Origin: Paraspadella gotoi
Taxonomy: Eukaryota > Animalia > Chaetognatha
Assembly: GCA_051294375.1 (NCBI GenBank)
Contig: CM119269.1
Span: 8,629,619-8,693,618 of the forward strand
Direction of reading: 5' to 3'
Length of the DNA: 64,000 nt
In this document: piece by piece, positions 2,758 to 55,452 of the stretch
How positions within the stretch are numbered: position 1 is the first letter of the stretch
Layout of the letters: the number at the start of each line of letters is the position of its first letter
Notes under the pieces: model-generated
What the model was told of the DNA's origin: nothing
The model's input: only the letters and a program-made list of their open reading frames with translations
The model's database searches: none
Made by a program: the position numbers and the translations under genes

Positions 2758-3810
2758 CTTTGCTCTTCATCCCCCGAACAGAGAACGAGATTGTGGCGTC
2801 CTCTTTCCGGCCCGCCCCCCCATTCGTGGTCCATATTGCATTCGGTTCCGTCGCTGGGCAACCATAAACAAAGCCAAGTTAAGGTCTAACCTAGATCTCC
2901 CTTTTCTATTAACAACTGCCCACCTGTAATAAATTTTATTAGCGTATCTGGGATGAAGGATCTTCATGATTTGAACGAGCCTCGTGCAGACGATTTTGTA
3001 TTTGATGTCGGGTGATCCTGTGAATAAAAGAAAAATGGGGGAGGGGCGGGGGGCGAATTCACTGAATCATAACTTTTGATTTTGGAAGTGAAGATATTTT
3101 TTCTTTTAGCTCGTTTTATATGATTTCAGGCATTGCCTTTGTACTCCTTACTTTTATTTTATATGTACTCGCCAGACCAAAGCGACTATTGCGAAGGAAA
3201 AGTGGACTCGTAAATAAGTGAATAGTAGTGTAGTGAAGTGTATGGTGGATTACTGTATACGACTCTAATTCAGATCCGTCTAATTCAACTCCATCCGTTA
3301 ATTTAGCATTAAACGTAATTCAATTATAATTATAATGATAATCCCAGATATCTCAAATATTTCAATCTTTGTATGAAATTGGTACAACCAATATAAAAAT
3401 TATCCATTCATTTAATAAATAAGCTATCTTGTCCCTGACTTTGGACAGGCTTTGGTGGTTTAAGGCCTCCATCACCCTTACAAGATAATAACATAGCAGG
3501 TTTCTGCAAGCTTTCAATCAAGACTCTCTCAGTCTTATTTATTCACTCCCGGTGAACCTGGCTTTCCTATCAATGAAGTGGTATAATATTTCAAAGAATG
3601 TTTCAATTGTATGAAAAAGAGAAAAGTTGTCTCATTGTCTCACCAATCATGTATTTGATGAGTGACATGTGCCATGGGGAGTGGACGCGCATTTCCGAGA
3701 GGTCGTGTTGTCCAAAATGGAAGACGCAACGTTGGCGCTCGTCGGCGACCGTGAGACCATCTTTGGAGATCTGCAGACTCCCTGGCTCTACCGTCTCCGG
3801 CTTGGAAGGC
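2758..3810 (-). CDS. Internal exons (3810-3644, 3017-2924, 2853-2758) of an uncharacterised protein, possibly PH/PTB-like fold
   Basis: Three GC-richer blocks bounded by AG/GT with compatible phases give an open peptide PSKPETVEPGSLQISKDGLTVADERQRCVFHFGQHDLSEMRV...GSPDIKYKIVCTRLVQIMKILHPRY...SDGTECNMDHEW. The fold assignment is only an impression. Confidence 0.55.
3372..3616 (-). mobile_element. Family A twister-bearing repeat (putative non-LTR retrozyme), solo intronic copy
   Basis: Near-identical to 4657-4905 and 4981-5178. Begins tatgaaattggtacaacc on the + strand like the other copies. Confidence 0.75.
3425..3487 (-). ncRNA. Twister ribozyme, permuted type P5 (family A), predicted cleavage U3462|A3461
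   Basis: Minus strand reads UAUCUUG(P5) uaag GGU(P2) GA UGG(T1) AGGCCU(P1) U^AA ACC(P2) AC(T2) C-aaa-G(P3) CCUG U CCA(T1) AA GU(T2) CAGG(P4) ga CAAGAUA(P5). All twister core positions and both pseudoknots can pair. Confidence 0.8.
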
Positions 3811-4710
3811 CTGGTGACCCGGAAGACAAAGATTGTTAAAATGTGAATGTAAGGCTTTTGGACTATTATTATTTATCAATTTTATTAAGACTTTTTCTGA
3901 GTTAATTCTTGTAATTTCAGTTGTATTTATTATTCAATAATCAATTGTTTCATATTCGTGCTCTTCGATTAAACATTTTTAGGGCAATTTTATAAACAAT
4001 TACCCGTATTAAACTCACTTGAGGCGACTTAATACTTTTATAAATTTGAGTTAAAATTATCCAATGCTCTGATCAGTAAGAGAGGTAAGTCGCCCACCGC
4101 GCGAACTTTTCAACAAAGCGAAGGGGGAAAAAAATTAAAATGGAACCATTAATCATAATCAAGACGACAGGGGGTTTTAATTCACTTCAGGTTAAAGGAA
4201 AAAAAAAGAGGTTTTCAAAGCAGGGTGCCTCGTTTCTTTTTTAGCGAGTAGAGCGCGAGCACACTGCTTCGTACTTAATATTTTGATTAGCCTTATGGTA
4301 TGGAATATCTTTTTACTCATTTGTTAGCATTCTCGCATTCGCGACATCTGTCGATTTCTGTGAAAACGAAAATCTCGAGCCGGATGTCGAGATTTAATCG
4401 CTAGATTAAAAGCGCCGTCTACGGCAGAAGGCGATTCCGCCTGATTGATAAGTTTTCCAATTAAGTTTAACGTCTTTTCTTTATCACGTCTATCAATCGC
4501 ATCGATGGAAAGAAAAAAGTCGTGAAACCGGAGTATGTGAATTCTTCTCGTGAGCATTTCTCGGAAATTTCTAATGTCGTGGTCTTCGGCGATAATCATA
4601 TTTATATAATTATATATTTAATTTCATTTATCTTTTGCTCTTCTCCCACTCTCCCCTTATGAAATTGGTACAACCAATATAAAAATTATCCATTCATTTA
4701 ATAAATTAGC

Positions 4711-54600: not shown

Positions 54601-55452
54601 GTTGTTGTTGCTGTAGTGTTTGGAAGTCGGGCTCACCAATGAAGTGACAGTAATTATTGTTATGTGTTAATGACAGAACCGTTCAATATAAGCAGTCCCT
54701 GAGCTTCGGATCAGGCTGTAACACGGTGTTACAGGCGGGTTAAGCGCCCTGTCCCTCTTAACTGCCAGACGACCACCGGGCTAGTACCCCGGACCTTTGG
54801 GTTGGGAGGCGAATGTCTTGCCTCCGGCACCAATGGCCGCTGATGAACGGTTGGTGGATTTTAGTCCACCATAATATAAGGCATGATTTAAGAAAACCCA
54901 AAATTATTGCAATATGCAAATTAGGATGAAGAGCTCGGTATTGATAAATAATCAATATTAAATCGAAATAAATGTAGATAATTCGAATCATTGTCTGTAA
55001 TATAATTGATTTTATTTTTAGTTGATAACTTAAAATAAGAAACTCTGTGCCTTTTCTTTTTGTAGAGCCAAATTGCTGCGACGCCCCTCGACGCGGAGTC
55101 CGACGAGAAGCCAAACCTTTCCCCGGTCGAGAAAACTGACGAAAAGTCTGAAGCTCAAATCGACAAAAAGTCCGAGGCTACAACCGACAAGAAGTCAGAG
55201 GTTAAACCCGACAAAAAGGCAGAACCTCAAATCGATAAAAAGTCCGACAAAAAGCCAGAGGCTAAAACCGACAAAAAGTCTGAAGCTAAAACCGACAAAA
55301 AGTCTGAAGCTAAAACCGACAAAAAGTCTGAAGCTAAAACCGACAAAAAGTCTGAAGCTAAAACCGACAAAAAGTCTGAAGCTAAAACCGACAAAACTCG
55401 ATCATCGTCGGTCAAAGTCGTGGAACCAGAGCCCTTCGCTCTCTATCATTAA
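48662..55452 (+). CDS. Patatin-like phospholipase with C-terminal TPR repeats and a charged repeat tail; exons 48662-48781, 48994-49158, 49931-50209, 50446-50730, 51149-51259, 51788-52729, 52990-53239, 53713-53921, 55066-55452
   Basis: The spliced frame contains ILSLDGGGVK|GI (oxyanion loop), FDMIVGTSTGG (catalytic Ser), APIYF and YVDGGVGANCP (catalytic Asp). TPR-like helices follow (YRTLGTMYRDIG, YLELGETCLYLG, CNLVGMVCLKLGD, WNGVGICFLKRGE..A..HFEKSL), then (DKKSEAKT)n. All junctions are GT-AG and phase-compatible. Confidence 0.88.
51462..51550 (+). ncRNA. Degenerate twister ribozyme type P5 (family C, element about 51347-51560)
   Basis: cgt GA GGA(T1) CAGCCG(P1) U^AA GCC GC(T2) C..P3..G CCUG(G) U UCC(T1) AA GC(T2) CAGG. 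Mismatches are present in P1, P2, P3 and P5. Confidence 0.5.
54270..54343 (-). ncRNA. Twister ribozyme type P5 (family B, 3' LTR), predicted cleavage U54320|A54319
   Basis: GCAGUU(P5) aag AGG(P2) GA CGG(T1) GGCGCU(P1) U^AA CCC(P2) GC(T2) CUGUAACA-cgg-UGUUACAG(P3) CCUGA U CCG(T1) AA GC(T2) UCAGG(P4) GACUGC(P5). Confidence 0.85.
54692..54765 (-). ncRNA. Twister ribozyme type P5 (family B, 5' LTR), predicted cleavage 54742|54741; one T1 mismatch
   Basis: Same as 54270-54343 except that the T1 strand reads CAG instead of CGG and one P3 loop base differs. Confidence 0.7.

Follow-up and report, generated by a model that had tools for sequence, protein, structure and literature searches.

Predicted type-P5 twister variants with a six-base P1 segment in three repeat families of the chaetognath Paraspadella gotoi

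Twister-like cores in three repeat families

The DNA analysed is a 64,000-nt stretch of the Paraspadella gotoi genome (contig CM119269.1), here called the window, and all coordinates are positions within it. A total of six motifs resembling the type-P5 twister ribozyme were found in the window; they are predicted twisters lying in non-coding repeats of three families (A, B and C), which are likely retroelements. The family A motifs occur on the minus strand, with the G of the conserved GA at 3473, 4759 and 5082 and the hexamer AGGCCT, those of family B also on the minus strand at 54753 and 54331 with the hexamer GGCGCT, and the single family C motif on the plus strand at 51480 with the hexamer CAGCCG. 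Exactly six nucleotides separate GA-NNN from TAA in all six copies, as the preliminary description of this DNA had stated. The T1 pseudoknot pairs as CCA/UGG, CCG/CGG and UCC/GGA in the three families and T2 as AC/GU or GC/GC, with a single T1 mismatch in the family B copy at 54753. The U^AA and the GA of L1, together with the AA of L4, are invariant in the six intact copies. P4 comprises 4–5 bp with identical letters across families A, B and C, and P5 comprises 7–8 bp in families A and B, that of family C being judged by eye. P2 consists of 3 bp with a bulge, in which a 3-nt strand lies opposite G-N-G-N with a variable bulge, and this arrangement is common to the three families.

A twister descriptor that left P1 free (0–30 nt) detected five motifs whose P1 was 6 nt long and that had no more than one mismatch; 20 dinucleotide shuffles, used as the control, yielded 0.1 such motifs per window. 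The sixth motif carried two mismatches. In an alignment of the six cores (five distinct rows), 73 of 75 cells were paired, whereas sliding the partners by 1–3 columns left 13–55% paired; these controls are lenient, as the structure was derived from the same sequences. Changes on both sides were observed in 6 of the 15 pairs, namely two in T1, one each in P2 and T2, and the hexamer pairs 1-6 and 3-4, and the T1 and T2 cells were 93% and 100% paired, respectively. The claim of twister identity with co-varying pseudoknots, made beforehand from the sequence, is thus upheld, P2 co-varying as well.

No Rfam family matched the window at the gathering level. With an E-value setting, the Twister-P5 model (RF02684) detected the family A copies at 31.7, 25.8 and 25.8 bits, under the gathering threshold of 37.6 and with a P1 loop of 0 nt, and it did not detect families B and C. 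The P1 segment, 6 nt with a loop of 0 nt, does not close as an intramolecular hairpin. All the core features tested are twister-like, whereas the hairpin P1 and a passing Rfam score are absent, so that the motifs are a variant of the type-P5 twister. Judged by their sequences, they are very probably active ribozymes. The three cores probably represent one ribozyme lineage carried by different elements, because the P4 letters and the unusual bulged P2 are common to all three; an independent origin was rejected on this ground, and homology of the element bodies was rejected because local alignments match only in the core. The families had been called unrelated, which is right for their bodies but not for their cores.

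The hexamer and predicted pairing between copies

The hexamer is self-complementary in five of the six intact copies, in full in families A and B, and in two of three pairs in family C, with self-pairing energies of -9.1, -8.3 and -1.3 kcal/mol for A, B and C, respectively. The loop-less palindromic P1 proposed in the preliminary description is therefore seen in families A and B, but only partly in family C. Pair 1-6 co-varies as A-U, G-U and C-G, and pair 3-4 reads GC, CG and GC; the latter cannot form within a hairpin yet is complementary in all three families, and it was therefore counted for pairing between copies. Within families A and B the hexamer is conserved in the rows listed, and variants listed for the 5′ LTR (long terminal repeat) copy of family B stay below 1% of the depth in run X2. 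Three decayed family-A-like copies keep the 6-nt spacing with non-palindromic hexamers (AAGCCT, AGGCGT and ATGCCT) and carry further core lesions.

Relatives of the core were found among the consensi of Naiad Penelope-like elements (PMC8557442, File S5), where motif searches covered the whole file, the last ~280 nt of 47 of the 54 records were inspected, and the core was identified by eye. Eight consensi carry it, one from a ctenophore, two from cnidarians and five from bivalves (Naiad_Mley, one that is probably Naiad-4_Chem, Naiad-1_Movir, Naiad_Mgal, Bpla, Mphi, Scon and Mmer). Their T1 letters vary (UCG/CGA, GUG/CAC, GGU/ACC), with only two of three T1 pairs in Mphi, Scon and Mmer, and the same bulged P2 is present in three mytilid records. 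Each of the eight motifs contains a perfect palindrome of 6–12 nt inside the P1 segment, centred on CGCG, GGCC, GUAC, CUAG, UGCA or, three times, GCGC. A self-complementary 4-mer at the centre is thus present in 8 of 8, of five kinds if CUAG and UGCA count as one, each with a chance of about 1 in 16, and the chance of the palindrome per segment is 0.003–0.21 at 50% GC and 0.007–0.30 at 70%; the eight records amount to about five lineages and not to eight independent draws. In the motifs from the two cnidarians the palindrome is single and short, as it is in the window families. The preliminary description had asked whether the hexamer stays palindromic under substitution in the wider family, and in these eight consensi it does, with different letters. 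Pattern scans for further relatives gave 4, 0 and 26 matches in viral contigs, 0 in prokaryote genomes, and 0 and 34 in metagenomes; none of the 64 had all the helices and they were rejected as chance, so that no relatives were found in these collections by this route, and an index of other DNA windows yielded no look-alike of family A or B. Nine other Naiads (CGi, Sglo, Olur, Tgra, Pmar, Skow-1/2 and Pfla-1/2) share a different conserved 3′ motif with a palindrome of 8–10 nt varying between species, which by its sequence is a candidate for another paired-copy RNA element.

Folds were predicted with a model without pseudoknots. The unconstrained fold of the family A tandem is a strand-swapped form in which the hexamers pair with probabilities of 0.98–0.99, P2 and P5 are crossed and P4 is local. 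When the hexamer was permuted in this fold, the mean was 0.0 for the non-palindromic permutations (32 of 40) and 0.54 for the palindromic ones (8 of 40). When the core was imposed, the swapped form of family A was 8.2 kcal/mol more favourable than two monomers, compared with 0.9–1.7 kcal/mol on average for non-palindromic shuffles (n = 33), single values of which reach 8.0; in family B the advantage was 2.9 kcal/mol. In the free fold of family B, the hexamers are unpaired with each other, and the near-palindromic P3 pairs between the copies, at 22 kcal/mol below the swapped form; family B therefore gives little support. The shared 6-bp P1 in a tandem transcript, as suggested beforehand, is accordingly the predicted fold for family A, but not for the free fold of family B.

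In the arrangement that we propose, the six-base palindrome would stand in for the P1 hairpin and pair with its counterpart in another copy. Each active site would be assembled from two copies, the P5 strand, P2 strand, catalytic GA and T1 strand coming from the 5′ half of one and U^AA, P2, T2 and P4/L4 from the 3′ half of the other. The 6-bp duplex of the two hexamers would act as P1 at both sites, and the swapped arrangement would be nested in a tandem transcript. A transcript running through two copies, the tandem in family A or the two LTRs in family B, would be cut twice and would free a unit of 323 nt or 422 nt, which would probably be the template for retrotransposition, possibly circularised as in retrozymes, while lone copies in host transcripts would be cut more slowly. 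Mobilisation might be provided by Naiad-type proteins for family A and LTR-type proteins for family B. Multimeric replication intermediates had been suggested as the substrate; the relevant multimers would be ordinary tandem or two-LTR transcripts. The palindrome is likely to serve pairing between copies, and we lean towards a swapped dimer that speeds cleavage; that the dimer would be effectively obligate for cleavage is somewhat less likely than not.

Several observations weigh against the swapped dimer. Bases 1 and 6 of the hexamer are able to pair intramolecularly in all six copies, which would allow a monomeric form closed by that single pair over a tetraloop. Among the rows listed (40 of 68 for family A and 40 of 226 for family B), neither family showed a compensatory change in the hexamer; the palindrome of the single family C copy is weak, and no partner lies close to it; P2 is not clear in the two cnidarian Naiads; and in six of the eight Naiad motifs the P1 segments are long with two palindrome-like stretches, so the geometry may differ. 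Strict dimer dependence is also opposed by the accessible text of two papers, in which twisters lacking P1 (mini-twisters) cleave at almost the wild-type rate (PMC5408937) and P1 imperfections did not lower cleavage among ~2600 natural twisters in the CHiTA survey (PMC11662667). These reports favour an alternative in which each motif works as a monomeric twister whose P1 is vestigial, a single pair closing a tetraloop. The palindrome would then do no more than avoid a penalty on chance swaps between copies, and cleavage would be independent of copy number. The variable P1 of Schistosoma T-variants (PMC8501958) points the same way, as do the co-variation of pair 1-6 and the family C copy, which reads as a tetraloop closed by C-G. 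Such monomers would leave the self-complementary loop centres unexplained, since a hairpin accounts for the outer pairs only, and these centres are seen with different letters in two of the three window families and in 8 of 8 Naiad motifs; we regard this alternative as rather unlikely.

The palindrome might instead be a dimerisation signal itself, comparable to the dimerisation initiation site (DIS) loops of retroviruses, acting by kissing of intact monomers, by RNA-RNA contact for packaging or reverse transcription, or as a protein site at the DNA level. This would explain conserved palindromes without a strand swap, and the second near-perfect palindrome in P3 of family B, paired between copies in the free fold, and the two palindrome-like stretches of six Naiad motifs speak for it. 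However, the window palindrome occupies exactly the P1 slot, the swapped dimer restores a normal P1 geometry on both sides, and the letters vary freely while the palindrome stays, which argues against a single protein site; we consider this explanation improbable. It appears very improbable that the motifs have lost their activity and persist as fossils, or that they are a twister-like fold without catalysis that spread along with successful repeats. The Rfam scores under the threshold, which also count against the swapped dimer, and the bulged P2, with 3 nt on one strand and 4 nt on the other, would fit such a history, but no intact copy departs from U^AA, GA or the L4 AA, all the helices co-vary, and Naiads from three phyla have the same core.

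The widest form of the proposal, which is more tentative still than an obligate dimer, is that a dimer-only twister lineage would act as a copy-counting switch of animal retroelements. It would replace the missing hammerhead in many Naiads and would have been acquired both by a non-LTR passenger and by an LTR mini-element, the latter being the first LTR retrozyme in animals. It would also free unit-length RNA from two-copy transcripts and leave many thousands of lone copies harmless in host transcripts. If true, twister and hammerhead would have reached the same solution in Penelope-type elements, the tolerance of a very fast ribozyme in many thousands of dispersed copies would be explained, and there would be an answer to why Naiads seem to be without a ribozyme. 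Family B would extend LTR retrozymes beyond plants and hammerheads, and a two-copy-dependent cutter of ~65 nt RNA would be a useful engineering part.

The carrier elements and their surroundings

The family A repeat, 323 bp long and very abundant, has a constant 3′ end and a Penelope-like arrangement. Its copies and those of the other families are given in Table 1. Outside the tandem at 4658–5177, the family A copies are 5′-truncated and have their 3′ end at the same base, and in run X2, where 26433 contigs aligned to family A, the loose ends heap at 4657–4659 and the depth drops towards the 5′ side. The fixed 3′ end, 5′ truncation, partial tandem and tail are traits of Penelope-like elements and non-LTR retrozymes, and by analogy family A may be taken as a non-autonomous Penelope-type passenger. 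No reverse transcriptase or GIY-YIG family was found among the 143 reading frames of the window scanned, and no hammerhead family was among the Rfam matches in the window, the twister-like motif being present in family A instead. Seven of the eight family A pieces (3372–48593) lie on the minus strand, the exception being a 26-bp 3′ fragment at 9099–9124, and this strand bias may reflect selection against one orientation.

Table 1. Features of the three repeat families in the window (twister hexamers and predicted cuts are given in the order of the strand).
Feature	Position	Strand	Remarks
Family A twister motif, P5 to P5	3425–3487	minus	hexamer 3468–3463; predicted cut between 3462 and 3461
Family A twister motif, downstream tandem copy	4711–4773	minus	hexamer 4754–4749; predicted cut 4748/4747
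Family A twister motif, upstream tandem copy	5034–5096	minus	hexamer 5077–5072; predicted cut 5071/5070
Family A partial tandem	4658–5177	minus	197-bp 5′-truncated copy, then full 323-bp unit; TA-rich 5′ flank; fixed 3′ end
Family A single copy, 5′-truncated	3372–3617	minus	
Family A decayed copy	11300–11484	minus	~40-bp run into next unit (Penelope-type tail)
Family A 3′ fragment	25818–25910	minus	starts inside ribozyme, without hexamer
Family-A-like decayed copy	27526–27663	minus	hexamer non-palindromic; T1 and P4 mismatches
Family A decayed copy	48368–48593	minus	conserved GA, P2 and T2 altered
Decayed family-A-like motifs	11422–11467, 27551–27596, ~48411–48494	minus	non-palindromic hexamer
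Family B 5′ LTR	54640–54873	minus	234 bp, TA...CA ends
Family B 5′ LTR twister motif	54691–54766	minus	P3 hairpin; hexamer 54748–54743; one T1 mismatch; predicted cut 54742/54741
Family B primer-binding-site-like segment	54626–54638	minus	begins TGG, 1 nt past 5′ LTR
Family B polypurine tract	54454–54465	minus	2 nt ahead of 3′ LTR
Family B 3′ LTR	54216–54451	minus	236 bp
Family B 3′ LTR twister motif	54269–54344	minus	hexamer 54326–54321; predicted cut 54320/54319
Family C twister core, single copy	51474–51540	plus	hexamer 51485–51490, two of three self-pairs; predicted cut 51491/51492
Family C element, approximate limits	51339–51561	plus	5′ part recurs without ribozyme at ~20945–21045

Family B is a 658-bp LTR element resembling a terminal-repeat retrotransposon in miniature (TRIM), whose two direct repeats enclose a 188-bp interior. 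Its layout is that of LTR elements and TRIMs, with two LTRs of fixed ends, a short interior, and motifs resembling a primer-binding site (PBS) and a polypurine tract (PPT). In run X2, 19714 contigs aligned to family B, which like family A has a high copy number, the interior was covered throughout, and the loose ends fall at 54216, 54640 and 54873–54877. An assembly artefact was rejected for families A and B on account of these contigs, both families being present also in run X9, which comes from another study. The PBS-like segment presumably resembles a tRNA-Trp site; no tRNA gene matching it was found within the window. The flanks carry no exact target duplication of 4–5 bp; a 6-bp repeat with one mismatch was observed in these AT-rich flanks. 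Rfam detected no type III hammerhead in the LTRs, which carry the twister-like motif instead. The P3 hairpin (54698–54740 and 54276–54318, minus strand) is a near-perfect 19-nt palindrome with a 3-nt loop; as it pairs between the two LTR copies in the free fold, it may offer them a further site of contact. A fragment of a BEL/Pao-type LTR retrotransposon (Integrase_H2C2, DUF5641) is located at 14335–16117 on the plus strand, adjoining an assembly gap, with a 342-aa coiled-coil-like frame on its 3′ side (16459–17487); a BEL/Pao-type element is a possible candidate partner class for family B.

The family C element is possibly a solo LTR. A 46-bp inverted repeat at 51356–51401 (plus strand) lies within it and is absent from the related piece at ~20945–21045. 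The family C motif lies in sense between frames coding for a patatin domain and for tetratricopeptide repeats (TPR) (49790–53948, plus strand), which may be one gene. A lone fast ribozyme at this site would cut the pre-mRNA, and the copy present has a weak palindrome. Elsewhere in the window, a 337-aa frame at 22421–23434 (minus strand) has the look of a seven-helix receptor without a Pfam match, and the exons of an SLC22-like transporter at 56105–63928 (plus strand) are interrupted by noisy 170-bp purine-rich tandem repeats at 58100–62500. Microsatellites are also present.

Comparison with known systems

In the literature searched, from which most subscription papers were out of reach and the CHiTA supplement might hold short-P1 examples, we found no natural twister with a palindromic P1 or working as a dimer, no twister in Penelope-like elements and no twister LTR retrozyme. 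Term counts in the accessible text of PMC8501958, PMC11662667, PMC10085705, PMC13725137, PMC7761336 and bioRxiv 10.64898/2026.07.22.740005 likewise gave none of these, with 0 occurrences of 'dimer' and 'palindrom' in that of PMC8501958. The available part of PMC5408937 mentions a twister crystal with intermolecular dimers, and that of PMC7761336 mentions unpublished truncated twisters at the 5′ ends of RTE elements.

The window motifs share with the type-P5 twister (RF02684, clan CL00120; PMC5408937) the strand order, U^AA, GA, T1, T2, P2, P4/L4, the optional P3 and the open P5 end, but they differ in a P1 of 6 nt with a loop of 0 against ~14 model positions, in the bulged 3-bp P2 and in their location in eukaryotic repeats. 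The reduced-P1 T-variant twisters of Schistosoma at Perere-3 (PMC8501958, as far as accessible) are also linked to a retrotransposon; unlike the window motifs, they are open at P1, are found at the 5′ end and borrow one strand of P1 from the target site. The minimal hammerheads of Penelope elements (review PMC6765202, from the part available) similarly have a palindromic, near loop-less helix by the cut site (stem III), tandem copies and a predicted strand-swapped double ribozyme; they belong to another ribozyme class, and their cleavage as dimers has been shown, whereas that of the window twisters is predicted.

Family A resembles the animal non-LTR retrozymes (PMC7761336 and bioRxiv 10.64898/2026.07.22.740005, both in part) in its non-coding unit of a few hundred bases, tandem and truncated copies, one ribozyme per unit and Penelope-like arrangement, but it carries a twister and not a type I hammerhead. 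Family B is comparable to the plant LTR retrozymes and TRIMs (PMC4918200, in part), with a ribozyme in each LTR, a short non-coding interior and PBS-like and PPT motifs, while it has a twister in place of the type III hammerhead, an animal host and a smaller size (658 bp); the same source reports no PBS or PPT in animal hammerhead repeats. The Naiads (PMC8557442, Craig et al.) share with the window the twister core and palindromic P1 segments, near the 3′ end of eight consensi, and with family A the 5′ truncation, partial tandems, tails of 30–40 bp and TA-rich sites with a (TA)n bias, and they differ in the two palindrome-like stretches of six of the eight; no Naiad protein was found in the window, where 143 reading frames were scanned. 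In its accessible text, that paper reports only the lack of canonical hammerheads in Naiads and never mentions a twister. Against this background, the window contributes the minimal form with a single hexamer and its occurrence in an LTR-type mini-element.

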